The notes beneath the pieces were generated by a model. It worked only from the letters and a program-made list of their open reading frames with translations, did no database searches and was not told the origin of the DNA. A DNA stretch of 64,000 nucleotides from Isurus oxyrinchus (taxonomy: Eukaryota), in assembly GCA_026770705.1 (NCBI GenBank), contig JANJGN010000026.1, forward strand, positions 27,218,001 through 27,282,000. The letters run 5' to 3'. Of the stretch, positions 2,228-62,600 are shown piece by piece; positions within the stretch are counted from its first letter, which is position 1, and each line of letters begins with the position of its first letter. The position numbers and the translations under genes were made by a program.

Positions 2228-5200
2228 TTACCGTTTAAAACAACTGGTGAGGGTGGCGAATGGATATATCATCACTTTCCTCAGCTCCTCTCGGAACTTG
2301 TTCTGGGCCACCGCATAGATGAAGACATTGTTGCAGGAGCTGAGTAACTGCAGCATGTTGGTTGTCTCTTGAAGGATGTAATCTGGGTCATTGAAATCCA
2401 GGCCCGTGAAGTAGGCCTCACCTGGAATCCGCACGTAGAGGAAATGTCCGACATAGGTGACCCACAGGAGGAGGAAGCTGAGGGAGATGGCGAAAAGCAG
2501 GACAATGGACCTCTTGCGGTTGATCAACTCCTGGTCTCCGTGACTCTCGGCGCCCCGGAGCTTCCTGTGGGCTCTGCTGGCCGCTAAGATGTGCCTTATG
2601 GTCAGGGCGTTAAGCAGCAGAATGAGGAGGAACGGGAGGAAAGGAGTTAAGATGTGGTCAAGCCAGTCATAGGCCTGCCAGGCGGTGGAGGAATAATAAG
2701 CTGCTATGATGTCACAGAACCAGGGCACCCCGTCCAGGATGTACAAAGGCTGGTAGGTGAAATGGAAAGGGACGTTCTTGATGCAGCTCAGGGCACTGAC
2801 CAATCCTATAACTAGCAATGCAGTTTCCTTGGTGCAGTATCTGGTCTTCAGGCCATGACAGCAGATGGCCACAAAACGGTCGAAGGTGAAGGCGACAGTC
2901 AGCCAGACTGAGACATCCCGGGTGGCAAAGACCAGCACGGCACTGAGCTTGCATGCAGGTGTAGTGGACAGGACACTGAACCTGAAATAAATTCCACCAA
3001 TCCGGTTGAGGGTGACGGCGGTGATTATGACCAGGAAATCGGCCACCGCTATCGCCAACAGGTAGTAGGTGATGCAACGGGAGAGTCCGCACCGTCCTCG
3101 GGCTAGTATTACAATCCCCAGCAAGTTAGCTATGAGAGACACAAATAGAGCTGTTAGCAAACGGGATCCAAACACCAGCTATTGCCTCACCCAATCTGTT
3201 AGTAAAAGCCTCCTCATCCGTCACTTTTACACTGCAGACTCCCACTATTCGAACACCATTGGAATTTGTTCGACATCTAATGCTGGATTGGCGCTTGCCA
3301 ATGCAGGAGTGACAACAATCAACCCCCGCCATAATCTCTGCTCTCTGGTCATTGAGTCAATCCTCGGGGCTAGCTATCCAGCTATACCTGATTCGAAACA
3401 TATGCTGCTCATGCCCTTATTCATGCCAAGTCCCATCCATCCATCAGCCCGTGCTCGCTGATCTACATTGATTCATAGTTGGACAACGGCTCGGTTTTAA
3501 TAATCTGATTCTTCAAAATTTCAAACACCTCAGTCTCATCAATCCACCCCTTGTAACACGCTACGGCCATCTGAGATCTCAGCGTACTACCCATTCTGCC
3601 CTCTTGTGTATCCCTGATATTAATCGATCCATCAGTGGTGCTAAGAGTTTTGAATGAATCTCTTGTCTCCGTGTTTACAAAGGAAAGGGAGGATGTAGAT
3701 ATAGTAGTCCAGGAGGAACACTGCGAGATATTGGACAGGATAGTCATGAAGAGAGAGGAAATACTCGAAGGGTTGAAATCCTTCAAAGTTTATAAGTCAC
3801 GAGGGCCAGATGGATTGTTTCTGAGGCTGCTGAAGGAAGTCAGGGAGGAGATAGCAGATGCTCTGAGGATGATTTTCGAATCTTCATTAGATATAGGGGA
3901 GGTACCGGAGGACTGGAAAAATGCAAATGTAGTTCCATTGTTTAAAAAGGGATCAAAGGAAATGCCAAACAATTATAGGCCAGTTAGTCTTACATCAGCG
4001 GTGAGCAAATTAATAGAATCAATCCCGAGAGATAGGATTAACTGTCATATGGAAAGGCATGGACTAGTCAGGGATGGTCAACATGGATTTGTTAAAGGAA
4101 GGTCTTGCCTCAAAAATTTGATTGAATTTTTTGAGGAAGTGACAAGAACGGTTGATGAAGGTAGTGCAGTGGATGTTGTGTACATGGAATTTAGCAAGGC
4201 ATTTGACAAGGTCCCACCTGGCAGATTGGTCAGAAAAGTAAAAGCCCATGAGATTCAGCATAATGTGGCAAACTGGATAAAAAGCTGGCTTTGTAACAGG
4301 AAACAAAGGTCAATGGATGCCCTTGTGAATGGAAAGTTGTCTCAAGTGGTGTTCCACAGGGCTCGGTGTTGGGACCTTTGCTGCTTGTGTTATATATTAA
4401 CGATGTGGACGTGAATGTGGGGGGCACAATTGGGAAATTTGCAGATGACACAAAGATTCAGCAAGTAGTGGATAGTGTAGAGGGTAGCCATAATCTCCAA
4501 AACGTTATAGATGGTTTGGTGGAGTGGGTGCTAAATGGCAGATGGATTTTAACATAGAAAAGTGTGAGGTCGTATATTTAGGGAGGTCAAACAGTTACAG
4601 GGATTACACAGTAAATGGGAATGTACTAAGAGGCGTAGATGAAGTGAGAAATCTTGGCGTACAAGTACACAAGTCCCTGAAGGCAGCAGTTCAAGTAGAC
4701 AAGGTTGTACAGAAGGCATATGGAACGCTCTCCTTCATTGGCAGAGATATAGAATATAAAAGTAAGGATATGATGTTGGAATTGTATAAAACACTGGTGA
4801 GGCCACAACTGGAATATTGTGTGCAGTTCTGGTCACCACATTACAGGAAGAACGTAATAGTTCTGGAGAGAGTGCAGAGGAGGTTTACAAGAATGTTGCC
4901 AGGGTTAGAAAAGTGTAGCTACGAGGAGAGATTGGATAGGTTGGGTTTGTTTTCCTCCGAACAAAGAAGGCTGAGGGGTGACTTGATTGAGGTGTACAAA
5001 ATTATGAGGGGAATAGATAGAGTTGGCAGGATAAATTGGTTCCCTTGGTGAAGAGTTCTAGAACTAGAGGAAATAGATTCAAGACAAGTAGCAGAGTGTG
5101 AAGGGGACACTAGGAAGAACTTATTTACACAGAGGGTAGTGGGTGTCTGGATTTCGCTGCCCAAGTTGGTGGTAGAGGCAGAAACTCTAAACTTTTTTTA

Positions 5201-6429
5201 AAAGTACCTGGATCTGCACCTTAAGCGCTGTAAGTTGCAGGGGTATGGGCTGGGTGCAGTAAGGTGGGATAAGAAAGGGCCCCTGGGTGTCCTCGGGCTG
5301 GCATGGACAAGATGGGCCGAATGGCCTCCTTCTGAGCTGTAACTTTTCTATGGTTCTAGTAGCATCAGCTGTCGAGGCCCTAATCTTAATCGATGGTTCC
5401 ATCTCTCCTTCCTTCTTTGGAATCTTTCTTATAACCTGTCTCTTGATCAAACTTTTGATCATCGACCGCAATATCTCCTTATGTCGTTCTGTATCAGTTT
5501 TGTTTGTTAAGGTTCCTCTGAAGCTTCCCCACCATAGGTACTGCAATGGTTGATGTAAAACCACAATTCCATCTTCTCAGGAGAGATGAAAAATACACGT
5601 TAACCTCGCCAACACCAGTCACATCCCATGAATAAAAAATATTTACTTATGCAAAATGAAATTCAAATACACCAAGCCTATCAGCGCAAGTCAAACTGCA
5701 TAACAGATTACAAATCTATTTTCATCCTCACTCAGCTCTGTTAAACGTTTCTATTATAAATTTCGAAGACCGCATTAACAATGGGGAGTACCCAGTGGGA
5801 ACTCACTCCACTGTAACTATTGCATCCTTCCAGGGGTCGCATTGTGGTTTAATGTAATCACTGAACAAATGTTTATATCACAAGGCATCTAATATTTTGG
5901 TTGTGCTGGAATAAATCATCTTCCAATATTGTAATATGCTCAATGCACCAACATTTTCCATTTTACTGCACTAATGAACGTTATTATTCAGCGTGACAGA
6001 GGAAACACTAGGTCGCTATTTACTACATTAAAATAAAATCTAATGTTAAACATGATAACAGATCAGTGTACATGCAATGCTACTTATTACAATTCATATT
6101 TCAGAAATCTAACAAAAGTTGTTCTATAAGCAATAATACGTTGAATACAATCTTGTAATGCTCCCATCTGTAAGTGCTCAGAATGCACTATAATTGACCA
6201 TAATACAGCATAATATCCTAAAATGTGCATGCATTGGAACCTGGTTGAAGTGTCTTACACTTAGAGAGCCATGAATATTAGAAAAAAAAATCAGCATTAT
6301 CCTGAAAGGGAAGAGACAAGTTTCCTGAAGATGTACAAAAAAAGCGATCCATGACTTACCGGGGACACCAATAGCAGCGAGGGTGGGATAGTAAATGGCA
6401 AAGAAGAGTCCTTTCACCGGTCCGTGCAT
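2228..6429 (-). CDS. GPR139/GPR142-like class A GPCR, intact, two exons (6360-6429 and 2228-3129), 323 aa
   Basis: Exon 1 MHGPVKGLFFAIYYPTLAAIGVP with G|GTAAGT donor; acceptor catag|CT at 3129 gives an in-frame ANLLGIVILARG; seven hydrophobic segments, SVWLTVAFTFDRFVAICC (TM3 DRF) and NNVFIY (TM7); no stops. Confidence 0.9.
3640..5352 (+). mobile_element. 5'-truncated CR1 LINE (RT domain plus 3' tail) inside the GPCR intron
   Basis: GPDG, PEDWKNANVVPLFKKG, NYRPVSLTS, QHGF, SKAFDKV, KFADDTK, LVRPQLEYCVQFWSP; frameshifts; typical 3' tail gggccgaatggcct. Confidence 0.95.
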
Positions 6430-11500: not shown

Positions 11501-14500
11501 TTAATTATTCTTGCACCATTTAAAGCAACCATTGAGAGTGGAGAATAGACACATCAGCAGGTTCTTCAACTCTTCTCGGAACTTGGCCTGAGTCACTGCG
11601 TAAATGAAGATGTTGGTGCAGGAACTGCTCAGCTGGAGCATGTTGGTCGTCTCTTGAAGGATGTGCTGCGGATCATTGAAATCCAAGCCGGTGAAGTAGG
11701 CCTCACCTGTAATCTGTACGTAGAGGAAATGTCCGACATAGATGACCCACAGGAGGAGGAAGCTGAGCAAGATGACGAACAGGAGGACGTTGGACCGCTT
11801 GCGGTTGTCCATCTCAGAATCCCCACGATTCTCGGCGCCCCGGAGTCCTCTGCATGCTCTGCTGGCTGCTAAGATGTGTCTCACAGTCAGGGCATTAAGT
11901 AATAGAATAAGGAAGAAGGGGAGAAATGGCATTAAGATGCGGTCCAGCCAGAGATAGGCTTGTCAGACAGTTAAGGTGTAGAAGGTGACTTTGATGTCGC
12001 AGAACCAGGGCATCCCATCCAGGATGTACAAGGGCTGGCAGGTGAAGAAGAAGGGGATGTTCGTGATGCAGCTTCAGGCACAGACCAGTCCTATAACCAG
12101 CGACACAGTTTTCTCGGTGCAGTATCTGGTCTTTAGGCTCTGACAGCAGATGGCCACAAAATGGTCGATGGTGAAGGCCACTGTCAGCCAGACTGAGCCA
12201 TCCCGGGTGGCACAGACCAGCAGGTTGCTGACCGTGCACCCCAGGGTGGTGGACAGGGTGGAAAATAAATGCCACCAAACCGGTTGAGGATGACGGCGGT
12301 GATCATGACAAGGAAATCTGTTACTGCTTTTGCTTACAGGTAGTAGGTGATGCGCCGGGAGAGTCCGCACTGCCCTCGGGATAGGATTATGATCGCCAGC
12401 AAATTGGCTGCAAGAGAGAGAAAAGGAGAGAAAAAAAGTTAAAGATCTCACTCTAAATACCAGCCACTTGTTATGATCTTGTTAGGGACCAATAACATTT
12501 AAGGATAACTCTGAACGCCTCGTAATTAATACTTGAACTACGCCACATGATTCACGTTTTTAAACAAAAGCAAACGTTACTGTATAAATAATTAATACAA
12601 GCAATGCTAATTTAAAACTGTAGTTTATAATTACTGCACACACTCCAGCAACATTTCCCCTAATCATTACAAGACTCTTGAAAATTCATTCACTTCTGTA
12701 TGGGTCATAGAAACATAGAAAAGTTACGGTGCAGAAAGAGGCCATTCAGCCCATCATGTCTGTGCTGACCAAAAAGAGAAAAGAAGAAACCAGCCGCTCA
12801 TTTTAATCCCACATTCCAGCACCCGGCCTCTAGCCCTGCAGGTTACAGAACTTCAGATGCAGATGGTCAACTTTTAAATGAATTGAGCATTTCAGCCTCA
12901 ACCACCAACTTTGGCAGTGAATTCCAGGCACCCACCACACTCTGGATGGAAAAGTATGCAACAGTCATCCAGGATGCACGTTTATTCTCCTCAGTGTTCC
13001 AATTGTTCTCTGAGGTTTCTGCAGAACTGAATTTAACATTCCTGTAATATGTAACGGAATTCATGGGGGAGAAGTAAAACTATGGAACTGAGTTTTTCAC
13101 ATAAGGAGTTATTAGCTATAGTTGTTTGTTTATAAACGTGGACTCTTTTAGTATTATTCTGTCAATTAATTACAGGATGATCGATATTATGGGGCTGCTT
13201 CGATCACCTTATTTGCTAAGTGACCCTACAATTTTTATTTAATACATCACTACTGTGGGTGCCTCAGTTCCTTGTTCTGATTGCCATCAGATGCCCAACT
13301 GCCTTCTCACAGCTTGCAAACTATTTCTGCTGACTGCTTTCTGCCACAAGGCTCTGTGAGGATCACTGTTACTTTACTTCTGTAATTACAAGAAAGGCAA
13401 ATCTTCTAATTGCTTTTTCCCTTGCGAAACCCAAACTAAGGTTGTACGCATTGTACTCTCATTTCGCATGGTGATAATACAAGTTGTATTTTCACTGTTT
13501 TAAGTATCGACCTAACGAACAATCATATCCTTTTGGCACTCTGAGTCCAATGTGACGAAGTGTACACCAAACCAAAACCGCAACTGCCTTCTTACTTGGG
13601 GATTTAAACATCAGGAGCACTCCTGATTCCTACTAGCCTTCTCTGCTCCCACAGCTTCTGTAAGGAGACTAGTCCCACAGCTGATTCCCAAGAACTGCCT
13701 GCTTTCTGAGCAAACACCCATTTAACGTAAACAAAATAAAGTTCTACCCAACAGCCCACCTCCATTAAATCATGGAATGCTTTGAGATGGAACAATTTAT
13801 ATCTCTAATGGATATAATTGCCCTCTCTCCAGACTCCCTGGCACACTGGGAGATCCAGAGGTGGGTCACCTATTACTTAAGTTATTTTTTTCGCTATCTA
13901 CTGTGATCTTATAACATAAACACAGGATGCACTTTATGTGTGTTAAACTCAAGCTTGTTTGAGCTGCATTTACATCAGTGTTGTTTTGTCAGTTTCTTAA
14001 CTAGATGCACCGTTTTTCTACAATTAAATTTTAATCCCTAAAATGAGTAGTTATATTCTAAATCATATTAATTATGAGCTAAATATTCGCAGCAAAATGT
14101 CCCATCCAATCTGTTACACAATATTTCCTCATCCATCCTTTGCCACCTCAAGAATCAGACTATACCAAAGCCTTTACTAATTGTTCTACACCCAATTTTG
14201 GATTAAATATTTGTCAGTACAGAAAACATCTCCTGCAGTTACAGCCACGAACCCTGCTGTCTGATCGCTGAGTCATTCCCTCTGGTTGCCCATCCTCTGA
14301 GGCTTGAGACCCTTTAAAATCTTGGTGTCTTGTTTGACCATGAAATGATCTTCCAAACGCCTCCCTCCCCTTATCAATCACAAGCACCAACGCTGCATAT
14401 TTCCACCTTTCTGATGTAACCAGTAATATGGCCCTTCTCCAATGCTTCCTTAGCTAAGGCGCCGCTGAAAGCCTTATATATGCCCTTGTTACATCTAGAC

Positions 14501-15469
14501 CTCAGGCAATTGGAAATGTCCCCTGGACAGCACCTCACTTTGCATTGTCAGTAAAGGTAAGCTCAAAGAAAATATTTGCTGACCGTGCACTTACTCACAC
14601 CAAGTCCAGCTCTTCCATCAGTTCTATACTCGCTGACCTACTCCCTTTGCTCCCGGTGCAGCAATGCCTCCATTGGAATATTCTCATGTTGCTCTTCAAA
14701 CCACTCCACAGCCTCGCCACTCCTAATCCCTGGATCTTTATGCAGCACTACAGCCATCTGGGATTTCAGCGTACCTACAGCTCTGCCCTCTCGTACACCC
14801 TGATATTAATCGCTCCACCAATATCTTCCATCTTTAGCTGACGAGTCCCTAATCTCTGAAATTCCTTTCCTCAAAGCTACAACTGTTTCCTTCTTTATGA
14901 TGCTCCGTATCTCTTTGATCATAAATTTACTTGCCTGCCCTAATATATGCCTAGGTGCTTCGGTGTCAATGTGTTTGCAAAGCTTCCGTGAAGCAGCATC
15001 ATACTTCAGTATTCGTAGAAAGAATTGCACAACTTCTCTCTCTCAGGTGGAAATGGGAGACGGGCAATAAACATTGACCTATCCAGTGACAGGGACGATC
15101 CCTGAATGAATAGAAAATATAATTAGCCAAAATACAAGGCAAACGTACACAACACAAAATAAATAATAGATTCAAATTCTTGCATCTCCACTCACCTACG
15201 TGAAGTGTTTCTGTAACTAATTCCTGCGAACACATTAACAACGGGACCTGCCCATTGGGAACTCACTGTACAGTAACTGTTAAAATCCTTCCATTGATGG
15301 CAATGTAGATTTCATCCAATTGCTGAATATATTTAAGATCGCAATGCATCTAATATAATTATTGCAAAGAAAGTAAAGAATTTATTTGGGATCCATAACT
15401 TACCTGGACAACAGCGGCAAGGATGGGATAGTAAATGGCATAGAAAGGGCCATTCACTGGTCCGTGCAT
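11501..15469 (-). pseudogene. GPR139/142-like GPCR pseudogene (exons 15404-15469 and 11501-12407)
   Basis: Exon 1 MHGPVNGPFYAIYYPILAAV is 4 nt short of the intact copy (phase shift); exon 2 has TAC TAC CTG TAA and further frameshifts; strong similarity to the copy at 2228-6429. Confidence 0.9.
12710..12955 (-). mobile_element. CR1 LINE 3'-end fragment
   Basis: Reverse complement of the CR1 tail at 5140-5350 (VVGAWNSLPKLVVEAE). Confidence 0.8.
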
Positions 15470-18037: not shown

Positions 18038-18330
18038 ATGCCGTCACCCAACATCTGGGTTGTATGGGGCGGGGGCAGGAGAAATTCTGACAGATTGAAA
18101 TAAACACATTTCATCTCATTCCCAAATCATGGTTGCAATCGGAATTTTGAAAACAATCCGATTTGATTACTTCCTGTTTAAATATATGTTTCAGATCTGA
18201 GCCATGGAGATTCTGTCACTTAGATACTGTCCGCAAATGTTAAGACATAAGGAGAAGCAGCTGCTTTAAGTTTCATCTACGACATTATATGGAAGGGTTT
18301 TTTTTTTGTTGCACTGGCTTATCCAGATCG
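18038..18330 (+). pseudogene. TCR alpha/delta-type V pseudogene V1 (paralog of V8), 3' half missing
   Basis: Leader ATG at 18038 with a dead donor; exon from 18195 reads LSHGDSVT*ILSANVKT*GE, matching V8 LSHGDSVTQPLSPGVKTEGE; no YYC or heptamer. Confidence 0.75.
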
Positions 18331-18912: not shown

Positions 18913-19424
18913 ATTTTTTTAAGGGGTCTTGACCTTTATCTGCCTGTTGTGCCTCACTGCACAGTAATAGACCGGCACACCCTCCACACTCAAGCTATTT
19001 ATATAGAGGTAGGCATTGTTCTGAGGCTGGTCAGCAGCCAGCAGATATTGTCCTGATATTTCATCTTCTTTGAATGCTGCCACTTTGGTAATTATCCAGC
19101 TTGGAGGTTGTGCCTGTTTATGTCGATACTATTGCATGTTGTTTATAATCTGGCCTGTATATTCGCAATCCAATTGCACCGAAGCTACTTCTGACACTGT
19201 TAACGCCACCAGTGACTGAGTTACTGGATCTGCAAATAGTCAGCCTGTAAATGTAGAGGAACAAAAGAGCAGGAAGTTAAACAGGATCGATCTAAACCTG
19301 TGTCTATCTTTATGAACGTTTGTAAATTCCCATTCACCAGGCTTGCATCAATCCGCGAAACTGTCTTGATGAACCTAATTCTATGCCTACTGCCCAACAG
19401 CGCCGCCAGTATTATCAGAAACAT
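18913..19424 (-). pseudogene. TCR V pseudogene V2 (leader 19391-19424, V exon 18952-19244, degenerate 23-RSS)
   Basis: Leader MFLIILAALLG with GT donor; V exon *LFADPVTQSLVALTVSEVASVQLDCEYTGQIINNMQ*YRHKQAQPP...LYINSLSVEGVPVYYCAVR; heptamer CACAACA at 18945-18951; two stops, one replacing the conserved Trp. Confidence 0.9.
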
Positions 19425-22485: not shown

Positions 22486-23022
22486 ATGGGGAACCGTCTC
22501 ACTCCACTCCTCATCATTATGTCACTTAAGTGTTTCCTTCCCAGTAAAACTCCATTCTCCTCCTGACTGCTGTAACCCAGGTATTATTGTTGGCAAAATA
22601 ATAGTGATCGTGTTGATGATTATGTTGATCAATATGAGGTTGATACTGATTCATGTTCTTACGCTTTTTAATTTTAGAATGGAGCTACGAAGACACAATA
22701 GAACAGCCGGTTGATGAAATTAAGGTTGAAGAGGAAAGTAATGTCCACATTAACCTGCACCTTGAAAACAAGCGTTGTAAACCCTTACGTAGACTGGTAC
22801 AGTCAGCGCTCCGGGAATCCTGCAATGTATATGTTTCACCTTATTGGCCAGAATATGCAAAGAAACACCAACCTCAATGATCGGTTTTCTTCTACGTTTG
22901 ATAAAAATAACAAGATTACCCAGCTAACCATCAGTAACACGCTGATCTCAGACAACTTCATGTATTTCTGTGCCATGGACCCCACACTGCTGCAGCGCTA
23001 TGGGGAAGTCCATACAAAAAGC
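22486..23022 (+). pseudogene. TCR V segment V4, near-intact but frameshifted (leader from 22486, V exon 22678-22982, RSS 22983-23022)
   Basis: WSYEDTIEQPVDEIKVEEESNV, a +1 shift near 22745, then TLTCTLKTSVVNPYVDWYSQ..DRFSS..LTISN..MYFCAMDP; RSS CACACTG-24-ACAAAAAGC; leader donor lost by a 6-nt deletion. Confidence 0.9.
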
Positions 23023-23046
23023 CTCACTGGCAGTTCCAGCTAGCGC

Positions 23047-23727: not shown

Positions 23728-24175
23728 ATGGAACTATCTCAGACCACTCATTATTATAACACCCTCAATAAGTATACACTTCACTCTGGCTGCCGAATCC
23801 AATCATTATTGATGATGTAATGATAAATATTGTCGTTGTCTTTGTCGGAATGGGGCCATCAAAATTCATCGGAGCAGTCGGTACCTGAAATGACTGTTGA
23901 AGAGGAAAGGAATATCACCATCAACTGCACTTTGGAAATAAGTGTGTCCCGGTACAGTCAGCAGCCCGGGCAGCCTCCATATTACGTGTTTTATATCAAT
24001 GAAGGATAGGAAAACGGAACCCAGATTTTAAAGAGCAATTCTCTTCTACGTATGTTAAAGCTGACAAAATTACTGAGTTAACGATTAGGAAATCCTGACA
24101 TTCGATACTTCAGTGTATTTCTGTGCCACGAAGGCCGTATTGCTGCAGAGATATAGCGGATCCCATGCAAATACC
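23728..24175 (+). pseudogene. TCR V pseudogene V5 (V exon 23849-24135)
   Basis: WGHQNSSEQSVPEMTVEEERNITINCTLE..RYSQQPGQPPYYVF..*..SVYFCATK; acceptor AG changed to GG; degenerate heptamer CGTATTG and nonamer GCAAATACC. Confidence 0.85.
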
Positions 24176-25686: not shown

Positions 25687-25725
25687 AGTTTTTGCACAGG
25701 TTCAACCCCGTTCTGTGTCTCTGTG
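25687..25725 (-). other. 23-RSS of V6
   Basis: CACAGAG, 23 nt spacer, GCAAAAACT. Confidence 0.9.
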
Positions 25726-26585
25726 GGTCTCAGTGCGCAGTAATACACCGTGGAGTCTCTCAGTTCTGTTTTAGACACTGTCAGCGGGACGGTGCGATTC
25801 ACATAATCAAGCTCCGCTGAAAAACGGTTTCCCGCAACTCTTTCTGTGTTCCCACTGTATCTGCTTCTCCACAGCAGATACTCCATGGATCCGCTGGGAT
25901 ACTGACGGTACCAGAACAGAGAGGGATCGCTGGTGCTTGTAGCTGTATAATTACAGAACAATTGAACATCGTCTCCTTCACTGGCTGTGACTGCAAACGG
26001 TGTCTGTAAAACGGAGTCTCCTCTACAATGTCCTGTAAGAGACCAGAGACTTGAATTACATAATGTCACTTCACTGTCAATCCCCCAGAAACGGTCTAAC
26101 ACCCCCAGCAGTTACCCAAGAAATAAGTCAGGACAGTTAATCATAACTATAATTCCTGCAGCTCAGGGGCTGTATCGGGAAGATCGACTGAGTAAAACAT
26201 CCTTTAGTGCACATTCAGCACCTTCTAAGATCAACTTCTCCCCTTCATTTGCTGTGTTCTGAAATGAAAACTGAAAACGGTCTGTGGATTTGGAAGTCTC
26301 GGGTTTGTCAAAGTCCCTCGCTAGCTCCAGTGGGGACTGGAGTCCCAGTCCAACTCTTCTGCTGTCATTCCCTCGGAGAAGTTCGCCTACCTATGTATTC
26401 GACAAGGTGGATCCGGATGCTTTTTCTCATTCAGGATCAGTTCATTTCTCCCCAAGTGTGGAGCGAATTGTCCTATCAAATGCAGTGCCTGACAAAGATG
26501 CGAAACACAGAGTTGGGCAACTTGTGAACTTACCGGTTAACAGAGCTGCAGCTGTGAGGAATAAATGCAAAGTAACAGGAGACAT
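25726..26585 (-). CDS. TCR alpha/delta-type V segment V6: intact V exon 25726-26032; candidate intact leader 26534-26585
   Basis: GHCRGDSVLQTPFAVTASEGDDVQLFCNYT..LFWYRQYP..NRFSAELD..VPLTVSKTELRDSTVYYCALRP with both Cys and the Trp; leader MSPVTLHLFLTAAALLT G|GTAAGT is phase-compatible; the nearer leader relic (donor 26115) has stops. Confidence 0.85.
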
Positions 26586-30546: not shown

Positions 30547-31003
30547 ATGAGTTTGCTCAACATCTGGTTTCTGTGGGGAACATTCGTGACAGGAAATTGT
30601 GGACATGCCATCTTTTCTCTCATCTCCAAAAAAATGGGTTGAATCTGAATTTTAAATATATCCGTGCATCTTTTTCTGTTTGAACATGTTTTTCAGTTCT
30701 GAGTCACGGAGATTCTGTCACTCAGCCGCTGTCCCCAGGTGTTAAGACAGAAGGAGAAGTGGTGAACTTAAGCTGTACCTATGATACGACAAAGAACAAC
30801 TATTATTTATATTGGTGCCGACAATACCCAGACTCCGAGCCCAATTATATGCTGAGGAAATACTCAGGGGGTAATGAATATAAAGCAAATTTTGTCAGAC
30901 ACCGTTTCTCTAATGAGCTTCAGATCGCGAAGAAATTAATTAGTTTGACCATCTCGGGTCTGCAGCTGACTGATTCTGCCGTCTATTACTGCGCTTTCAG
31001 ACT
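30547..31003 (+). CDS. TCR alpha/delta-type V segment V8: open V exon 30697-31003, leader 30547-30592 with a non-canonical donor (ORF or pseudogene status uncertain)
   Basis: LSHGDSVTQPLSPGVKTEGEVVNLSCTYDTTKNNYYLYWCRQYP..HRFS..LTISGLQLTDSAVYYCAFR; leader MSLLNIWFLWGTFVT G|GAAATT. Confidence 0.8.
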
Positions 31004-31041
31004 CACAGTGATGGAAGCAGTCTCACCCCTGTACAAAGACT
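31004..31041 (+). other. 23-type RSS of V8
   Basis: CACAGTG, 22 nt spacer, ACAAAGACT. Confidence 0.85.
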
Positions 31042-35307: not shown

Positions 35308-35346
35308 AGTTTTTGTACAGCGAAGGATGAATTTTAAACCAGTGTG
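35308..35346 (-). other. 23-RSS of V9
   Basis: CACACTG, 23 nt spacer, ACAAAAACT. Confidence 0.92.
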
Positions 35347-35799
35347 TTGCTCAGCACGCAGAAGTATACGGCAGTGTCCTGGATTTCCGCTCGAGTGATC
35401 GTTAAAGGAAACTCCTTTCCTTTGTTAGTCTGGCCGGCCTCGAATTTCCCTTTGGCAAAATCTGCATCTTCTTTTTTGTTGCTATCTCGATACAAAATAA
35501 AACGCGGAGCCTGGTTCGTGTGATGTCTGTACCAATACAGATCGGGATTACGGTGACTTGTTGTGTAGCTACAGTCTATTTTAATACGATCTCCTTCAGT
35601 AATATCCAGTGTGCTCTGAGGCTGGGATACAGAATCTGCCTGAATCACACCTGAAATAAAACATAACGAAATGTTGAATGCAATACTGAGATGAAAAGTC
35701 TATTAACATTACATTACTGCAAACGGATAAAATGATATGGCTGCACCTACCGAACATCAGCCATAATATAACCAGATGACGATGCGGCATGAGCCTCAT
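35347..35799 (-). CDS. TCR alpha/delta-type V segment V9, apparently functional (leader 35751-35799, V exon 35347-35650)
   Basis: Leader MRLMPHRHLVILWLMF G|GTAGGT; acceptor tttcag; VIQADSVSQPQSTLDITEGDRIKIDCSYTTSHRNPDLYWYRHH..FILYRD..FPLTITRAEIQDTAVYFCVLS; no stops. Confidence 0.92.
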
Positions 35800-37171: not shown

Positions 37172-37492
37172 GATGTTTGTATACACAGCAGAGCGGTTTT
37201 GAAACACCCTCAATCCGCAGAAATAGATGGCGCTGTCTTTCGGCTCCGCTGCAGAAATTGACAACGGAAAAACTTGGTGTTGGCGGAAATGACGAGCATC
37301 GAATTTTCCGTTCGCAAACTCGGCATCCGTGCGCCGGGTGTTGTCACAGTACATTAGAAACTGGGGTGCCTGTCTCGGGTACAGCCGGTACCAGTAGCAA
37401 CCCGGATCATCAGAACGGGAATTCAATTGTGGATTATCTCCCTCAGATACCTTCGACTCATGTTGAATCTACCGAACTCCCTTGGATTTTAC
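37172..37492 (-). pseudogene. TCR V pseudogene V10 (V9 family)
   Basis: YWYRLYPRQAPQFLMY..DAEFANGKFDA..FPLSISAAEPKDSAIYFCGLR; 5' part disrupted; heptamer deleted, nonamer relic ACAAACATC. Confidence 0.88.
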
Positions 37493-38039
37493 CAAGTAAA
37501 GTAATATGGAAAACAACAGTTAACACACTTACTGATTAGGAGCATCCCAGCCCACGGAGGGAACCTCAATTGCAGTCTAACTATTATAAGGGCCGTCTGG
37601 AAAATTCACACTAGAGAAAGGAAGACATTTTAAGATTTACAGATTACAGGGAGAAGAATAATAATTCACATCAACACGGGGCTCACATGTCCCAGTATAC
37701 CTATTACAAAGCTGAACAGCTGAACAGACGTCACCTCTAAAGTGCTGGCAAGATATTCCGAACTCGAATGTCAAAGTCTTGCCGAGCACGTGACCAAGTC
37801 GAGGTTTGTTACCTTGGCACACGGTCGCCCCAATGATATCCCGAAATTTGCTCGGTTACAAACAGCAGAAATGACCAGGTGATAGACATATGCAAGAAAC
37901 AAACGCAGTTAGCCCCAGTCCGGTTCGGATAGCAAAGATCACATGCGTGCGTGTTCACATCATTCTAGTGGAGTACTAGATGCCAAAATACCCACAATAT
38001 AAATAGGCACACAATCCAGAGAATTTTAATAAATGTTTA

Positions 38040-48676: not shown

Positions 48677-49112
48677 ATGCCTGGTATCTGTTTACATTTA
48701 TGTGGCATTATTAGACATTCCAACACAGATAAAGTTATAGTTAGGCCTCGGTTCATTTTTACTTCAGGGGAGACTCGGGCAGATTCGGTATCACAACCTC
48801 AGACAACACTCTACGTGTCTGAAGGAGATGGTGTGATTATAAACTGTAGATTATAGACACAACAAACCTCGGTGAACCCTATCTGTGTTAGTACAGACAA
48901 CACACAAAGGCTCCCAGTTTTATTTTGCATCGGGAAAACGACAGAAAAATGGACGCCGATATTGTCAACGAAAGATTCGAGGTCAAGTAGACTAATTTAG
49001 AAAAGAAGTTTCCTTCATCGACCGCTGGAGCGGAAATAGAGGGCACTGCCGTATCTTTCTGTTGGTTGAGGGTCAGAATTGTTTCAAACTCATCTGTCGC
49101 TGTACAAAAACC
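48677..49112 (+). pseudogene. TCR V pseudogene V11 (V9 family; V exon 48768-49073)
   Basis: ETRADSVSQPQTTLYVSEGDGVIINC.., *YRQHTKAPSFILHRE..AEIEGTAVSFCWLR; stops and a frameshift; RSS CAGAATT-23-ACAAAAACC (perfect nonamer, dead heptamer). Confidence 0.88.
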
Positions 49113-51843: not shown

Positions 51844-53718
51844 ATGCACGGCCCAGCGAAAGGCCTCTTCTTCGCTATTTTCTGTCCAATTCTCGCTCTT
51901 ATTGGTGCCCCTGGTAAGCGATGGATCCCGAATAAATGTCTGTGTCAATGTAAATTTCCAGAAGATTTGGACTCTTCACTTCCAGGGTCTGAATGTTAGG
52001 GACTGAAACCGTGCTCCAACGTATATAGGTGCTCTGGATGATATTATACAGTGTTATGCTGCTCTATTTGTGCTAGCATTATGGGGCATTACAAAATATT
52101 ATTCAATTTATTATGCTCCACATTTAGAAAAATGCCTTTTATTAGAATGCTGAGATATGAATTGCAGTGTTTGGCTTTACCTGAACATTAACCTGTCATA
52201 TAGTTGGAGCATTGCGTTTTATTCTAAACCAGTCAAATGCAATCCAGTGTTTTGAGTGTTGCGCAGGATCATCCAGTATCTGAATGTACTGACCTGTATT
52301 CTCTGATCCTATCAATGTACCAGAAAGTGAATAATTACAGTGTTATCTTATATATTAGATAAATTGTAATATAAAATACTTTTAATGATAACACAAATAT
52401 ACAATGCGATCTCTAGAATAATGTAAAAGTTATGGTATAATGAGTTCCCACCGTACCGTCCTCATTGTTAATGTGGGCTTAGGAATTAATTACGGAAAAG
52501 TTTGAAAAAGGTGAGTGGAGATTCAAGATTTTTAATTTGTTATGGATTTTGTATTGTGCTGGTAGGCCTTGTGAATGTTAGTTAATTATATTTTTAATCG
52601 TTAACGGGATGTAGGTGTCCATGACAAGGTCAATATTTTTTGCTCATTCAGATAAAAGCAAAACACTGCGGATGCTGGAAATATGAAACTAAAATAGAAA
52701 ACGCTCGTAAAACTCAGCAGGTCTAGTAGCATCTGTAGAGAGATAAATAGAGTCAACGTTTCCAGTCCGTTTAACCCCTCTTTTTATCTCTCACAGCCAA
52801 CTTGCTGGGGATCGTAATCCTATCCCGAGGGTGATGCGGACTGTCCTGGTGCATCATCTACTACCTGGTGGCGATAGCAGTGAGCAATTTCCTGGTCATC
52901 ATCACCGCCGTCATCCTTAATCAGATCGGCCGGATCTACTTTCAGGACAGTGTCCTGTCCACTACTCCCGCATGCGCACTTAGTGCCGTGCTGGTCTTTG
53001 CCACCCGGGATATCTCAGTCTGGCTGACGGTCGCCTTCACCATCGACCATTTCGTGGCCATCTGCTGTCAGAGCCTGAAGACCAGATACTGCACTGAGAA
53101 AACTGCGTTGCTGGTTATAGGGCTGGTCAGTGTCCTGTGCTGTGTGAGGAACATCTCTTATACTACTTCACCTACCAGCCTTTGTACATCCAGGATGGGG
53201 TGCCCTGGTTCTGTGCGGTTAAGCCTACTTATTACACTTTGCCCATCTGGCAGGTCTACGACTCACTGGACCTCATCTTAACTCCTTTCCTCCCATTCCT
53301 CCTCATTCTGCTGCTCAAAGCTCTGACTGCAAGGCACATCTTAGTGGCCAGCAGAGCCCGCAGGAGGCTCCGGGGCGCCGAGAGTTACGGAGATCAGGAA
53401 ATGGCTAAGCGCAAGAGGTCCATTGTCCTGCTTTTCGCCATCTCCCTCAGCTTCCTCCTCCTGTGGGTCACCTTTGTTGGACATTTCCTCTATATTCGAA
53501 TTACAGGCGAGGGCTACCTGACCAGCCTGGGTTTCAATGACCCGCGGTACATCCTCCAGGAGACAGACAACATGCTCCAGTTAGTCAGTTCCTGCAACAA
53601 CGTCTTCATCTATGCAGTTGCCCAGAAAATGTTCCGGGAGGAGCTGAAGAAGGTGCTGATGTGTCCCTTCACTACCGTCACTGGCTGTTTTAAACACGGT
53701 AAAACGTTCTCTTGTTAG
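51844..53718 (+). pseudogene. GPR139/142-like GPCR pseudogene, inverted relative to the other two (exons 51844-51913 and 52797-53718)
   Basis: Exon 1 MHGPAKGLFFAIFCPILALIGAP G|GTAAG; exon 2 ANLLGIVILSRG then TGA; frameshift near 53150; otherwise close to the intact copy. Confidence 0.9.
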
Positions 53719-54212
53719 TTCACTTTCATCATAGTGGTTCACTATGTAGCAGCTCTTTCGCTCTCTCTCCTTCACTCTCTCTCTCTCTCTCTGTCTTTCT
53801 CCAGAACCAGAAAGTCCTGGGCTGAAGCTCTCTTGCTTGAGAGATGTCAGCCTCATACTCCAGTTCTGACAGTGTCCCTTTGGCCCTGAATGAACACTGA
53901 ACTATCGCAGTTGCTGCCCGCCTGTTTGAGACATTAAACCACTGTGAGTATCTGCCCTCTCATGTGGAATATGAAAATCCCATGGTCGCAATTTCAAAAA
54001 GGAGTATGAAGATCTTTCACCAGGTTCCTATAACAATTGTCCCTCATTTAACACCATTGAAAACAGCCATTATTTCTCCAATTATATTTGTGGGATCTTG
54101 CTCTGTGCGCATTTGCTGACGTGTTTCCTACATTACACTGCGGGAAACACTTGATTGGCAGGAAAACACCTTAGGAAATCCTGAGGTCGTTTTTATCCAT
54201 TTTTCTTTGTCT

Positions 54213-54724
54213 NNNNNNNNNNNNNNNNNNNNNNNNNNNNNNNNNNNNNNNNNNNNNNNNNNNNNNNNNNNNNNNNNNNNNNNNNNNNNNNNNNNNNNNN
54301 NNNNNNNNNNNNNNNNNNNNNNNNNNNNNNNNNNNNNNNNNNNNNNNNNNNNNNNNNNNNNNNNNNNNNNNNNNNNNNNNNNNNNNNNNNNNNNNNNNNN
54401 NNNNNNNNNNNNNNNNNNNNNNNNNNNNNNNNNNNNNNNNNNNNNNNNNNNNNNNNNNNNNNNNNNNNNNNNNNNNNNNNNNNNNNNNNNNNNNNNNNNN
54501 NNNNNNNNNNNNNNNNNNNNNNNNNNNNNNNNNNNNNNNNNNNNNNNNNNNNNNNNNNNNNNNNNNNNNNNNNNNNNNNNNNNNNNNNNNNNNNNNNNNN
54601 NNNNNNNNNNNNNNNNNNNNNNNNNNNNNNNNNNNNNNNNNNNNNNNNNNNNNNNNNNNNNNNNNNNNNNNNNNNNNNNNNNNNNNNNNNNNNNNNNNNN
54701 NNNNNNNNNNNNNNNNNNNNNNNN
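54213..54724. other. Assembly gap (N run)
   Basis: Run of n. Confidence 1.
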
Positions 54725-54815
54725 TTTATTTCTTTCTTTATTTTCTTCCTTCCTTTCTTTCTTTCTCCTTCCTTCCTTTCTTTCTTCTTCCTTCCTTACT
54801 TGCTTTTTCCTTTAT

Positions 54816-55009
54816 NNNNNNNNNNNNNNNNNNNNNNNNNNNNNNNNNNNNNNNNNNNNNNNNNNNNNNNNNNNNNNNNNNNNNNNNNNNNNNNNNNNNN
54901 NNNNNNNNNNNNNNNNNNNNNNNNNNNNNNNNNNNNNNNNNNNNNNNNNNNNNNNNNNNNNNNNNNNNNNNNNNNNNNNNNNNNNNNNNNNNNNNNNNNN
55001 NNNNNNNNN
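54816..55009. other. Assembly gap (N run)
   Basis: Run of n, preceded by a pyrimidine-rich simple repeat. Confidence 1.
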
Positions 55010-56560
55010 ACTTCACGGACACAAGTTCCACTAACGTTACTCTTAACACTTAAAACAAAGTATTTGATGGGTTGGGAAGTGGGATTTTTGAGCATTGAAT
55101 TGTGATCTGGCTTCTGCTGCATGAAAAGGTGCTGGATGCACATTCAGTAACAAGTTTCAAAAGTTAATTTAGTATATTCTAGGGCGACATTTGATTAAGA
55201 ACAAGTAACTATAACTAACTGGCTTGCTCTTTCAGAGACCGGGCATACACGCCGTGACCAACTGATTTGCTGTTTTGCTTCATGGTTGCAAACAGCGATA
55301 TTTGCGACCTCAGGCCACACGAACTGTCTCTCTCGGTGAATAAAGTGCTTTTTGAGAAAGGTTGAATCAAATTTGTGCAGCCGCAGGTCCTTAATGTCAT
55401 GCTTATCACCGAAAGCCATCGATCAGTTCATCGTTGTTTGGGATGAGGGGCTTATTTTATGAAGAAATCTTGAATAGTTTGGATCATTAGCCAGTGGAAT
55501 TTAGAAGAATGAGAGGTGAACTTAGTGAAACATATAGGAGCGGGGGTGGGCGGGTGGGGAAGGGGGTGGTGCGGGGTGGGGGGGATGGTGGTAGTGGGGG
55601 TGGTAGAGGGGGAGGTTGGTGCTGCGTCTTGACAGGGTAGGTACTGGGAGGGTGTTTCCACATGTGGGAGTGACCAGAACTGGAGGACAGAGCTTAGGAT
55701 TAAGGGACCTACCTTTAAGGGGGAGATGAGGAGATATGTTCTTCTCTCAGAGGGTTGTTTGTATGTGGAATTCTCTTTCCTAGAAAGCAGTGGAGGTGGT
55801 CATTAAATGTATTAAAGGGTGATTTATGTTGTGCTAATACCATGTGTTAGACAGATTTTTGTTAGGCAAGGGAGTTAGGGGCCAGACAGGAATATGGAAT
55901 AGAGACCACAGACAGATCAGCCATGAACATATGGAATGGTGGATCAGATTCTGTGGGCTAAACGGCCCACTCCTGCTTAAAGTCCCATAGTCAAATATTT
56001 ATTTGTTTGGCGAGAGAGTGTTGATGGGTGCGGGTGGTCTGAAACACAGAGTGACAATGACATAGCCCAGTGTAACATAAACAGCAAAATGGGACAGCCT
56101 AGTGTGATAAGAGCTAAAAAATTTTCAATTGTAACATGAACAGAGCCAAAATGTGCCCTCACCTAATCACAGAATAAGATCTAATCTCATAAAAGGTGAT
56201 CTGGTTTAATCTAATAGGTACAAGATCTAATAAGTCAATAACAGAGATAGGAACTAAGCTAATATAAAAGTGCACATTCTCTACTTCACTGAAAACTGAG
56301 GCAGGGAGTTGTATTACGTAAAAAGAGACAAGCTCAATTACAATAATAAATGAAAACGGATCTTGTGTGACGTCAACAATGGTATTTCCTTGCACTAAAT
56401 GAAATAAGGCAAGGTCTAATGCGATATTACCAGCAACATGCTTTTGTGAACATTCAGAATGATGTGTTTCGTGCTTTGTGCACACTTCTAACCTTCATAC
56501 GAATTATGCAAACATGCATAATGCAACACATATGTACATGATTTACTTTCACACACGCAA

Positions 56561-56578
56561 ACACACACACACACACAG

Positions 56579-56616
<38 letters not shown>
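56561..56616 (+). repeat. (CA)n microsatellite
   Basis: Direct reading. Confidence 0.95.
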
Positions 56617-56620
<4 letters not shown>

Positions 56621-59135
56621 TTGGTTGGGCATAACACCAGAATGAATTAGTGTACTTTTACACACCACGTTTTGCCCCTAAATAGTGCAACGTACGGCGC
56701 TCACAATAAGGGACTAATCCCGCTTCCTTCTCAGAGATAGTTCAAAGATTCACCCCAACTTCTCCACCGCATATTACATCCTGAGGATCTCAGAAAGTGA
56801 CATGTTCATACTTGTTTCCAAATATAGTCGATATTGGAGGGCATAAATATTATTTACACAGGGGGAGGAGGAAATATACAATTATTTGTCAGGAAGTTTT
56901 GCCAATCTGAGTCTATCTGGAATAAAGAAATCGCGGAATCCAGGTAGTTTCTGGAAAAATTCAATTTGTGGCCAATAACAAAAATTCCATTATGTCACAA
57001 AATGATCATCACATCTCAACATCTGTTTATGAATAATGAAGGAACCAATCTGGATGAAGAAATTGCTGGTTCTCTTCTTCGGAATACCGGGTGCCATTGG
57101 ACCATGAAATGCAATGATTCCCAGAGCTCATTGTCGAAACCTCCTTTGTTATAACACCTGTAAATTATGTACAAGCTCTTGCCCTGAACATACCATTGTA
57201 TGAAGTGAAGTTCACGGAACAAAATGATGTTTCCTGTTATCTCCTTGGCACCAGGAAACGGATGCTTCAGCACATGTTGACCAAAGGTGAAATGCTGGAG
57301 CGCCATCCTGCGGAAAAGGATGACTCTGAATTTCGACCCGAGTATTGCTGCATGATTTTACTGAATTATTATTACGTGAGACTGTAATGAATGTTATTAC
57401 TTTGATTATACTATTACTATAACTTCTCTATTTGTTCTTTTCCATTCGCTGCTTGCTCTTTTACATCATTCTGCAATTATTTGTCTCAGTTTTCTTATGT
57501 GTCCAATTAATTAAACAATATATGCTCATTTGCATTCTCCTTAATGATTCCACCATTATAAAGTTAGGTTGCAATTTGGTTAAAAAATAAATCAGCCTGA
57601 CCAATTCGTTAAGCATCAAAGGCGGACACAACATTGAATAGGTCCATCAATTACGGGAGATGGGTATTTTGCTATTTCTGTGTTTGAGTGTGTACCCGGG
57701 TGTGTGTGTGTATGTGTGTGTGTGCGTGTGTACGTGCTGTTCACCAGCCAAGCATATCACTCAGGGACATCATTGGTTACACACCGAGAAATTCTCCCTT
57801 CACATTAACCTATCAAACACTGACAGGACAGGTGCTCCACGGTTATGATACAAAATACATCTCCATCTACACTGCTCAAACACTCTTATCCAGAGTCAGT
57901 GCGGCATGGGTTAAATGCAGAGTAAAATCTACCTGTGCACTGTCCTAAAAACAATTATAGGGCAGATAGAACAGGGATGAACTGAAGGGTGAATCTCCCT
58001 CTACACTTTTACCATCAAAGGCTCCTAGTCCACTCCATCACGAATGAATGTAGAGATATTCTGGTTCGGTGAGCGCCAATTATGCGCGAAATTGTGAAAT
58101 TAATTAACTTGTAACTTCTAAATCATCTGAAATAATATTTTATTCTATCAAATTACTGAGATGGTATACTTTACACATCCAAATTACATTTCTAAAGGCT
58201 TGTGTGCTTCTCACATCTGAAGCCCGTAACTTGTTGTCTCCTCAGTCCCCATGCCCAGTAAGTTCTCATATATGCTCCTTGGTCACATATGCTTATAAAT
58301 GCTCTTCATTTCACGGTATCTCACTTCACTGTAACATAACGTACAATCTGGCAGCTGAACTGTGTTAACAGTGAAAGTGGTGTAGGCTACCTCACGGTTC
58401 ACAGATACTTTAAACCTTCTCCCAACTCATGTCTGTATGTGAAGGCAAGATACTCGAGAGCTTAATTGCAGAATTGTCAGTACCACAATACGAGTCCTCG
58501 TCCAAAAGTCCTCCTATACATCGATATCTGAAATGTCTCCGAGTGACAAAAGCAGCTGCGAAAACAAGAGTAACATTAACTTCATGATATATGCAAGCAG
58601 AAGTAAATAAAGTGCTTGCAGATTTCAACAACATAAGCGATCTATCTATCTATCTATTAACCACATAACTATACATCTTTCAATCTATTCGTCTGCCTTT
58701 CTGCCTGTGTGCCTGCCTGCCTCTCTGTATATCTATCGACCTAGCTGCTCAGGGTGGGAGCACTGATCCTCACACTGAACACTGTGAACAAAAGAAAAGT
58801 CACTCACAAACTTAACGGTATTAAGACATTATCCAACTGTCTGTCTATATATTTATTTCCTTGTTTTTCTAACTTTCTCCCGCATTTCTATCGATCTAAG
58901 TATCTGAGGGCAAGATTTATTTTTCTGTCCGTCTTTTCATTTTTTTAAGTTGAACAACCACGCATAGAAATGTTTACTTAATGTGTTTCGGTAATCTGGA
59001 GCTGTAACACCAGCTATAGGATATTGTAATTTTAATTTTAAACATGGGAGCGTAACATTCCTGAATATTACCAGCATTTCGAAAGGTCCTGGGTTCAGGA
59101 AAGGTTAATGGTGCAGCGGACACACGTCAGTGAAC

Positions 59136-59446
59136 AAGGCATTGGAAAGGGGAATCTCTTTTTGTCTCACTGTGTCCCCATCGCACAGTGACAAAATCTG
59201 ACGCCCTGGACCGCAGTGTTAACTATAGACATGGTATTGAACGTCTTCACTCCGTCAAAAGACGGTGTGTAGCGTCCTTTGGACATATTCCCCTGGTAAA
59301 TAGAGGCGATAAATTTCGCCGCCCCTGTCGGTGTTTGTACCAGACAACGGTACCGCCTGTTCCAACTGAGAGCCGATAATCCAGTTCAATCCGTTCCCCT
59401 TCCAGAGGTAACATCAGGGTGGGAGCTCTGATCCTCACACTGAACA
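59136..59446 (-). pseudogene. TCR V pseudogene V12
   Basis: Acceptor ttcacag; LEGERIELDY..VVWYKHRQG..; ends HCAMG followed by a perfect heptamer CACAGTG (59168-59174); nonamer decayed; frameshifts. Confidence 0.75.
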
Positions 59447-62344: not shown

Positions 62345-62600
62345 AGATGAGTGACAGGGATTCAGTGTCCCATCCAAAACCGGAAGTCGCGTCAGAAGAG
62401 TACCCGGGAATTTACATAAAGACTACAGGAGAAAATACGTCCTGATACTATCGGGATTCTCTAGCTAATATCATTATTTTCAGAATAAGGAAAAGTGTAA
62501 TTTCTCAATCGTTTTAAGTTACGGTCAAGTTCGGCTATTTCAAACCGTAGCGTTAGCAGAGACCTGTAGATTTCGGAATGAATAACAGAATCGGTTTCTG
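62345..62600 (+). pseudogene. Highly decayed TCR V relic V13
   Basis: Acceptor ttatcag, then MSDRDSVSHPKPEV (compare DSVSQP), *YYR at the Trp position, and RPVDFGMNN (compare xxEDSxxYYC). Confidence 0.45.

Follow-up and report, generated by a model that had tools for sequence, protein, structure and literature searches.

The window, a 64-kb stretch of Isurus oxyrinchus DNA, contains three paralogous two-exon class A G-protein-coupled receptor (GPCR) genes, of which G1 is intact while G2 and G3 are pseudogenes. This structure had been claimed in the initial annotation and is established by the exon coordinates and lesions given here. G1, on the minus strand, has a canonical GT/AG intron and an open reading frame; its product is 94% identical to basking shark P0001 and 96% identical to great white P0017, and pairwise identity among G1, G2, and G3 is 71–77%.

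6360..6429, minus strand: G1 exon 1, comprising 23 codons and 1 nt from the ATG at 6429, followed by a GT donor; matches the N-terminus of P0001 and P0017
2228..3129, minus strand: G1 exon 2, the rest of an intact 323-aa class A GPCR (Pfam 7tm_1, E = 3.6e-21)
15404..15469, minus strand: G2 exon 1, 66 nt versus 70, the 4 missing nt being a frameshift; pseudogene
11504..12408, minus strand: G2 exon 2, a pseudogene exon with three stops and a single frameshift
51844..51913, plus strand: G3 exon 1, open
52797..53718, plus strand: G3 exon 2, pseudogene (one stop, one frameshift) in inverted orientation with respect to G1 and G2
53808..55373, plus strand: G3 3' flank, collinear with the 3' flank of G1 on both sides of the N gaps

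A match to the G3 intron at 17.1 kb, considered as a fourth GPCR gene, was rejected as a common repeat.

[quoted passage not shown] Eleven stand out clearly with tblastn and a V-domain profile (best piece 12.7–130.9 bits, V1 being fragmentary), and two are weak remnants; the profile reached a maximum of 10.9 bits in control sequences (one reversed and three shuffled windows).

18191..18330, plus strand: V1, fragment, paralogue of V8
18940..19299, minus strand: V2, pseudogene (stop), 46.8 bits
20895..21215, plus strand: V3, frameshifted; V4 is its tandem paralogue
22686..23022, plus strand: V4, 5' end out of frame; recombination signal sequence (RSS) at 22983 with a 24-nt spacer
23857..24150, plus strand: V5, frameshifted pseudogene
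25687..26144, minus strand: V6, V exon open; 23-RSS at 25725; likely leader exon with a stop codon
28701..29003, plus strand: V7, pseudogene (stops)
30547..31041, plus strand: V8, V exon open; perfect heptamer at 31004, 22-nt spacer; likely leader without a GT donor
35308..35799, minus strand: V9, the sole fully clean segment, with leader exon, GT/AG, open V exon, and 23-RSS at 35346
37178..37495, minus strand: V10, pseudogene (stop, first Cys missing)
48770..49098, plus strand: V11, inverted paralogue of V9 with a frameshift, lying 2.7 kb upstream of G3
58319..58566, minus strand: V12, weak V remnant, 11.4 bits versus the control maximum of 10.9
59168..59446, minus strand: V13, frameshifted V remnant, 11.3 bits versus the control maximum of 10.9; perfect heptamer at 59174, nonamer missing

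V9 carries all marks of a TRA/TRD V segment, namely a V-set exon, the Cys/Trp/Cys residues, a leader exon, and an RSS with a 23-nt spacer, and its nearest named relative is coelacanth TRDV3 (54%). V4, V6, and V8 have RSS spacers of 22–24 nt, yet show 5' or leader defects. V13 retains a splice acceptor as well as Trp and Cys motifs, with a perfect heptamer directly after the Cys codon; perfect heptamers occur 15 times in 126,588 strand-bases. Among 92 matches, the named relatives of the V segments are TCR alpha or delta V. TCR chains lead their single-domain PDB matches, although the summed score ranks multi-domain antibody constructs higher. The window yielded no J motif and carries no annotated D, J, or C segment. 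With TRAV/TRDV relatives of the V segments and chondrichthyan relatives of the GPCRs, the initial reading as a TRA/TRD-type V array of a cartilaginous fish holds. A V segment at 62.3–62.6 kb, where that annotation ended, was rejected, as it scored 5.0 bits (E = 0.32) and fell outside the 22 best profile matches. The inversion of the third GPCR within the array is confirmed by the plus strand of G3 (51844–53718) and by V11 upstream of it; its placement between V11 and V12 is right as to position, but its far border is a decayed remnant barely above the control.

Two N gaps lie within 54213–55009. The initial annotation had allowed for a misjoin across this interval, against which the location of the gaps inside the G3 3' flank argues: this flank is collinear with that of G1 to their left (246/366 identical) and right (214/315; score 147, shuffle maximum 68). 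There is no gap between G2 and V1, nor between V11 and G3. The public contigs over 1600–21500 and 48000–60000 are short; none spans a GPCR together with a V segment and none bridges the N gaps, so that they weigh neither for nor against the assembly. A contig from a second organism covers 17179–18598, reaching into V1.

Which receptor family do these genes represent? G1 scores 76.2 bits against Pfam 7tm_1, and the model of P0001 has seven long helices (pLDDT 87). N1.50, D2.50, the C3.25–ECL2 Cys pair, D-R at 3.49–3.50, P5.50, W6.48, N7.49, and Y7.53, numbered by offset from motif anchors, are present in G1 and in 97–100% of the close relatives having a residue there. The prolines at 6.50 and 7.50 are absent, with Thr at 6.50 in 102 of 120 relatives and Val, Thr, or Ile at 7.50. 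Among solved structures GPR139 is the best match of the G1 family by sequence (E = 1.3e-9; PDB 7VUG, 9M42) and ranks first by fold (E = 3.1e-10), with the neurotensin and neuromedin U receptors close behind. The sequence match amounts to 41 bits and 21% identity, versus 116–121 bits for the salamander and coelacanth relatives; the nearest non-chondrichthyan relatives found are from salamanders, coelacanth, and one teleost (31–33%). The family comprises at least 1,485 proteins at E ≤ 1e-20 (7,999 candidates scored) and forms 104 clusters at 50% identity and E ≤ 1e-30. Among 120 listed members, 117 carry a chondrichthyan species name and three carry none.

GPR139 is a single-copy gene. Three copies in 64 kb, the size of the family, and the low identity led us to reject G1 as a GPR139 orthologue, and by sequence G1–G3 are members of a chondrichthyan-expanded family instead. 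The earlier designation 'GPR139/142-like' is apt as a label for a distant family whose best solved match is GPR139, but not as a statement of orthology. Olfactory receptors (ORs) have a single coding exon; G1 has two and scores 20.7 bits with the OR profile 7tm_4, under the cut-off of 27, so it was also rejected as an OR. Because G1–G3 are not ORs, the suggestion of an ancient GPCR/antigen-receptor linkage in common with mammalian ORs is unsupported.

In a quick tree of 65 rows (SH-aLRT support only, midpoint root, without GPR139/142 sequences), G1 is sister to P0017 (SH-aLRT 98; 269/281 identical), and the 23 sampled galeomorph rows form one clade (SH-aLRT 100). Coelacanth P0412 and teleost P0427 make up a sister pair to the shark-plus-salamander clade. 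G1, G2, and G3 fall into three subclades; as each contains members from other species, the three paralogues appear to be old.

The initial annotation cast the GPCRs as passengers that co-duplicate with the V segments. A non-olfactory GPCR family is indeed interspersed with the array, but a duplicating V-plus-GPCR unit is not apparent: within the window no block of homology includes both a GPCR and a V segment, the mutual homology of G1–G3 ends ~0.4 kb upstream of the ATG and reaches no V, and the V segments adjoining G2 and G3 belong to different V families. A V-profile scan of 290 GPCR-family proteins revealed no chimeric V–GPCR gene models. A metagenome scan gave 122 pattern matches, none of which was confirmed.

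Linkage to the TCR alpha/delta chromosome recurs in a second assembly. P0282 (LOC121270132, XP_041031383.1) of the great white lies on a 20,355,162-bp contig; Table S1 of PMC12227049 gives LOC121270132 as TCR-alpha on great white chr27 at 8.20–8.35 Mb and lists scattered TCR V segments up to 17.1 Mb. All four great white family members with records examined (XP_041031385, 387, 402, and 519) are on a contig of identical size, which places the great white relatives, including the G1 sister P0017, on the TCR-alpha contig. Two of them follow the TCR-alpha model by 2 and 4 accession numbers, and accession order relative to this one anchor suggests that the relatives lie between V segments. The accession-versus-position series behind this suggestion consists of 33 of the 46 Table S1 rows, hand-picked as position-ordered (rho 0.55 over all 46), and one of the four predicted positions collides with a V segment, indicating that the accession offset drifts. 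The closeness of Isurus oxyrinchus to the great white keeps this second assembly from being a deep comparison. The tie of the top contig to TCR comes from the great white only, with one usable shark TCR anchor among 73 long-protein matches; the search with short V sequences yielded no RefSeq shark V protein that came with a chromosome length.

Genome-wide scatter had been named as an outcome that would speak against the linkage, and the result differs with family depth: the closest subfamily gathers on a single contig per species, and members of the wider family occur next to unrelated genes as well. Listed representatives on the top contig number 6/6 in basking shark, 10/11 in whale shark, 5/6 in zebra shark, 7/9 in horn shark, and 8/12 in brownbanded bamboo shark; 4/12 brownbanded and 4/8 whitespotted bamboo shark representatives are off it, and the 17 of the epaulette shark are spread across 10 contigs, some >100 Mb. 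In the epaulette shark, a 5,136,515-bp contig carries P0058 and P0073. Table S1 of PMC12227049 places epaulette TCR V segments up to position 5,118,634 on NW_026867487.1, a scaffold whose length the table does not give, so that identity of the two is suggestive only. Chimeric gene models place wider-family members next to genes of the sodium channel, integrin, MMP-like, trypsin, and uromodulin-like kinds.

We favor a model in which G1–G3, old paralogues from an orphan class A subfamily expanded in sharks, are probably passengers that multiplied and decayed in a duplication-prone antigen-receptor region, without a role in V(D)J recombination. The interleaving would have arisen as this region was repeatedly duplicated and inverted, rather than through selection for co-expression, and the decay of GPCRs and V segments alike fits birth-and-death evolution. 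G1 would be transcribed from its own promoter and may signal through G proteins when a ligand, either small and polar or a peptide, binds to it. A search of sequencing runs with G1 exon 2 listed no RNA data set, a result that weighs neither for nor against expression. The predicted pocket of G1 has a polar, acidic character, conserved within the subfamily and divergent between subfamilies: pocket entropy is 1.10 bits in 120 close relatives, versus 1.43 at other outer-half positions, and 2.64 in 51 wide-family representatives, versus 2.33 (outer) and 1.11 (inner). This pattern resembles that of a chemosensory-type repertoire.

Selection on linkage could explain equally well why the clade has stayed in one region across galeomorph sharks. 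As an alternative, the GPCRs would be immune genes retained through lymphocyte or thymus expression and shared opening of locus chromatin, with V rearrangement deleting or inverting copies in individual T cells; the initial annotation had raised the possibility of co-regulation in thymocytes. Concentration of the subfamily on one contig in several species, the great white copies on the TCR-alpha contig, and the single galeomorph clade all speak for it; yet two of the three genes are pseudogenes and most V segments around them are also broken, the window shows no common V-plus-GPCR unit, and non-immune genes adjoin the wider family, making this reading unlikely. Slightly less plausible is a dispersed chemosensory-type repertoire that overlaps the V array by accident, as two large tandem arrays on a repeat-rich chromosome might, with no real enrichment. 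Such a repertoire would account for the 104 clusters, the variable pockets across the wide family, and the many kinds of neighbor genes, but not for a close subfamily kept to one contig per species, nor for four of four great white members on the TCR-alpha contig. It is a long shot that the subfamily is kept in the TCR alpha/delta V array because rearrangement opens, deletes, or inverts copies to yield clone-specific sets of ligand-sensing GPCRs; if true, a germline sensor repertoire would be coupled to V(D)J recombination. That the interleaving is an artefact of assembling a repetitive region is very improbable: the N gaps and the lack of a public contig spanning GPCR and V leave room for it, but the stretches between G2 and V1 and between V11 and G3 are free of gaps, the N gaps sit within a collinear flank, and an independent great white assembly has the family on the TCR-alpha contig.

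The passenger model, which we prefer, can be set beside several known systems. PMC12208981 presents GPR139 as a brain-expressed, highly conserved receptor that Trp and Phe activate; human GPR139 resembles the shark family as its best sequence and fold match and likewise has no Pro at 7.50, whereas the shark family differs in its low identity, in lacking Pro at 6.50, and in having many copies per genome. Another comparison is with GPR210A/B (Rinne et al., 2019), GPR139/142-related orphan sets reported from coelacanth, gar, and teleosts (PMC6504862); the nearest non-chondrichthyan relatives found for G1, from salamanders, coelacanth, and a teleost, may be comparable. The words shark and cartilag- are absent from PMC6504862. 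Cartilaginous fish are described as GPCR- and OR-poor (PMC8455134), and a large orphan family has been hidden in them beneath the automatic label 'probable GPR139'. Literature searches, mainly of open-access papers, and term searches of PMC12227049 with its supplements, PMC10751288, PMC8455134, PMC12294341, PMC8514136, PMC12208981, and PMC6504862 found no description of the family in sharks or of its TCR linkage.

In the elasmobranch antigen-receptor complex (AgRC), TCR alpha/delta V segments extend in both orientations over many Mb (PMC12227049), and the closest relatives of G1 and G3 lie on great white chr27, the chromosome that bears this complex. The rows of PMC12227049 list Ig, TCR, UrIg2, PSMB5, and VSIG1 only; searching its main text for GPR, GPCR, and G protein gave 0 matches, as did searching its two supplements for GPR and G-protein coupled receptor. 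The same study describes shark RNA-seq from 20 tissues, among them thymus, spleen, and olfactory epithelium. One GPCR subfamily has its chromosome, and here its V array, in common with the TCR alpha/delta locus, raising the question of whether duplication-prone chromatin yields such interspersion as a side effect or regulation underlies it.

In mammals, OR genes are interspersed with TRAV segments at TRA/TRD and trypsinogens accompany TRB (PMC2275272). The shark locus is alike in that a non-immune multigene family, pseudogenes included, is interleaved with TCR V segments; it differs in that the passenger is a two-exon GPR139-related receptor rather than an OR, and in that the V segments occupy both strands. 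The OR/TRAV and trypsinogen/TRBV interspersion of tetrapods may reflect the same working, reached independently, and the shark locus would then be a second, unrelated instance of GPCR genes colonizing TRA/TRD, convergent with mammalian OR/TRAV.

The window is shark DNA in which a class A GPCR gene of two exons occurs three times (G1 to G3; 71–77% pairwise identity), one intact and two broken, and our reading of splice signals and frames bears out this part of the initial annotation. V segments were located with a V-domain profile made from database proteins; seven are plus-strand and six minus-strand.

Receptor genes and V segments in the window
6360–6429 and 2228–3129, minus strand: G1, two exons, canonical splice signals, open 323-aa protein
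Minus strand: G2, first exon 4 nt short, three stops and a frameshift
Plus strand: G3, one stop and one frameshift
18.2–49.1 kb: eleven clear V segments
58.3–58.6 and 59.2–59.4 kb: two weak V remnants

Both pseudogenes, which belong to different subclades, have His at position 3.50, where 120 of 120 relatives have Arg. A high-copy insertion with very high summed contig depth separates G1 from G2 (~6900–10200); its frame 7366–7755, which we take to resemble a Harbinger-type transposase, gave no Pfam match at 1e-3. LINE fragments with endonuclease and reverse transcriptase domains occupy 765–1118, 3575–4411, and 43512–44096, one of them within the G1 intron.

Among 7,999 candidates scored, at least 1,485 are related to G1 at E ≤ 1e-20, and the matches of an exhaustive search at E ≤ 1e-30 fall into 104 clusters when grouped at 50% identity. 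Shark, skate or ray names appear on 117 of the 120 listed relatives, mostly labeled 'probable GPR139'. The nearest nameable relatives outside chondrichthyans are salamander, coelacanth, and teleost proteins (31–33%), and the best solved-structure match is human GPR139 (41 bits, 21% identity), followed closely by peptide receptors. A quick tree with SH-aLRT support places the salamander genes with the shark family (96) and G1–G3 within a clade of 23 galeomorph rows (100). The nearest relative of each gene belongs to another species: great white P0017 and basking shark P0001 for G1, a Mustelus gene for G2, and great white and basking shark genes for G3. The receptors thus form an old and expanded family of their own on the GPR139/142 branch, neither GPR139 nor olfactory receptor; 'GPR139/142-like' holds for the branch but not for GPR139 itself. 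The family may correspond to a GPR210 set of Rinne et al., 2019 (PMC6504862). Literature searches, largely outside subscription journals, turned up no publication that describes this family in sharks or its linkage to TCR.

G1 keeps the class A signaling motifs whole, and they hardly vary among its relatives; prolines 6.50 and 7.50 are missing. We predicted 28 pocket positions, numbering them by offset rather than from a structure; there the 120 near relatives are conserved and polar or acidic, with a mean entropy of 1.10 bits vs 1.43 at other outer-half positions. Across 51 representatives of the wider family the pocket is strongly variable (2.64 bits vs 2.33 outer, p 0.049, and 1.11 inner). 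Because the close set was chosen by similarity to G1, the comparison is informative only in that the pocket-to-outer ratio reverses, which suggests that each subfamily has one class of ligand.

Named relatives of the V segments belong to the V repertoire of TCR alpha and delta; a search of the window for a J motif found none. Only V9 is clean from leader through 23-spacer RSS; V6 has a stop codon within its likely leader, and the likely leader of V8 lacks a GT donor. The remnants are marginal (11.4 and 11.3 bits, where four control windows reached 10.9 at most), but the second shows the Trp and Cys motifs, an acceptor site for splicing and, where expected, a perfect heptamer. Duplications comprise V3/V4 (tandem), V9/V11 (inverted), and V1/V8. 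The tandem 1.6-kb unit with V3 and V4 (20247–21846 and 22077–23714, 74% identity) shares part of its upstream sequence with 28024–28224, ahead of V7. A 25/50-bp tandem repeat whose unit includes a heptamer-like word lies 0.4 kb past V8 (31417–31532). The V13 acceptor and 5' end form an 84-bp duplication (58749–58832 and 59414–59497, 98.8% identical), one copy of which adjoins the V12 remnant, just upstream. Around V12/V13 (55000–60000), non-coding DNA is covered far deeper by 93–96% identical contigs than by exact-match contigs, a weak hint that the block is multi-copy.

Using contig size in bp as a chromosome fingerprint, we found one contig dominant in most galeomorph sharks, counting listed cluster representatives only.

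Listed cluster representatives on the top contig
Basking shark: 6 of 6
Great white: 3 of 3
Whale shark: 10 of 11
Zebra shark: 5 of 6
Horn shark: 7 of 9
Brownbanded bamboo shark: 8 of 12
Cloudy catshark: 3 of 4
Whitespotted bamboo shark: 4 of 8
Mustelus: 3 of 9, scattered
Epaulette shark: 17 representatives over 10 contigs, scattered

A V-segment search led to great white LOC121270132 (XP_041031383.1) on a 20,355,162-bp contig; Table S1 of PMC12227049 gives it as a TCR-alpha model in the antigen-receptor complex on chr27. The four great white receptors seen (XP_041031385, 387, 402, and 519) have a contig of likewise exactly 20,355,162 bp, so chromosome-level linkage is well supported. A constant accession-to-LOC offset from a single anchor predicts three of them at V-flanked LOC numbers absent from the Ig/TCR table (8.4–8.6, 9.1–10.1, and 12.8–15.0 Mb), the fourth colliding with a V; from this offset we infer interleaving among great white V segments. 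G1 and P0017 differ at only 12 of 281 residues, which makes the window's species a close lamniform and the comparison shallow. Of the top contigs, only that of the great white is tied to TCR; in the epaulette shark, linkage to TCR V is suggestive only.

On balance we favor a history in which a ligand-sensing GPCR subfamily would have taken up its place in the antigen-receptor region at the beginnings of galeomorph sharks or earlier, and since then undergone birth and death in step with the V segments. The window does not bear out co-duplication with V, as first proposed: homology among G1–G3 runs at most ~0.4 kb ahead of the ATG and ~0.9 kb beyond the stop codon and includes no V, and the window's V duplications bring no GPCR.

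Lymphocyte co-regulation, initially suggested for thymocytes, appears unlikely. By established V(D)J mechanics, a gene embedded in a V array would be deleted or inverted whenever a more distal V rearranges, and the consequence for an embedded GPCR would depend on expression.

Overlap of GPCRs and V segments without enrichment is somewhat less likely still. It is opposed by the dominant contigs of most galeomorph sharks. Elsewhere among chondrichthyans, chimeric gene models attach members of the wider family to sequence of sodium channel, integrin alpha-X-like, hemopexin-repeat, trypsin, uromodulin-like, TRIM or hexokinase type; the GPCR family therefore has many homes. In one gene model, little skate P0413 on an 828-kb contig, a trypsin domain is joined to a member of the family. 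As trypsinogens flank tetrapod TRB, the family may also neighbor TCR beta in skates.

That the interleaving is an assembly artefact is very improbable, the G2–V1 and V11–G3 intervals being gap-free. Public contigs over the stretches concerned include none long enough to bridge anything. Two N gaps occur (54213–54724 and 54816–55009). The 3' flanks of G1 and G3 align on either side of them (to the left 246 of 366 bases agree, to the right 214 of 315; score 147 vs a maximum of 68 over 100 shuffles), the two G1 blocks lying 145 bases apart in G1; the G2 flank matches left of the gaps only. Tails of two great white models from the G3 clade, P0007 and P0126, also match 55291–55356 (E 0.002). The gaps therefore fall within a single flank of receptor type, where the flank of another family member may have been joined on. 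The stretch 55291–55356, on the plus strand behind an AG acceptor, may be a third exon of G3-type genes or an alternative last one, judging from its match to these C-terminal tails.

The preferred history, settlement followed by birth and death, has counterparts in mammals: olfactory receptors at TRA/TRD and trypsinogens at TRB follow the same passenger pattern (PMC2275272), being, as the shark GPCRs would be, multigene passengers undergoing birth and death with V. Olfactory receptors are unrelated to G1-type receptors, so the parallel with TRA/TRD is convergent.
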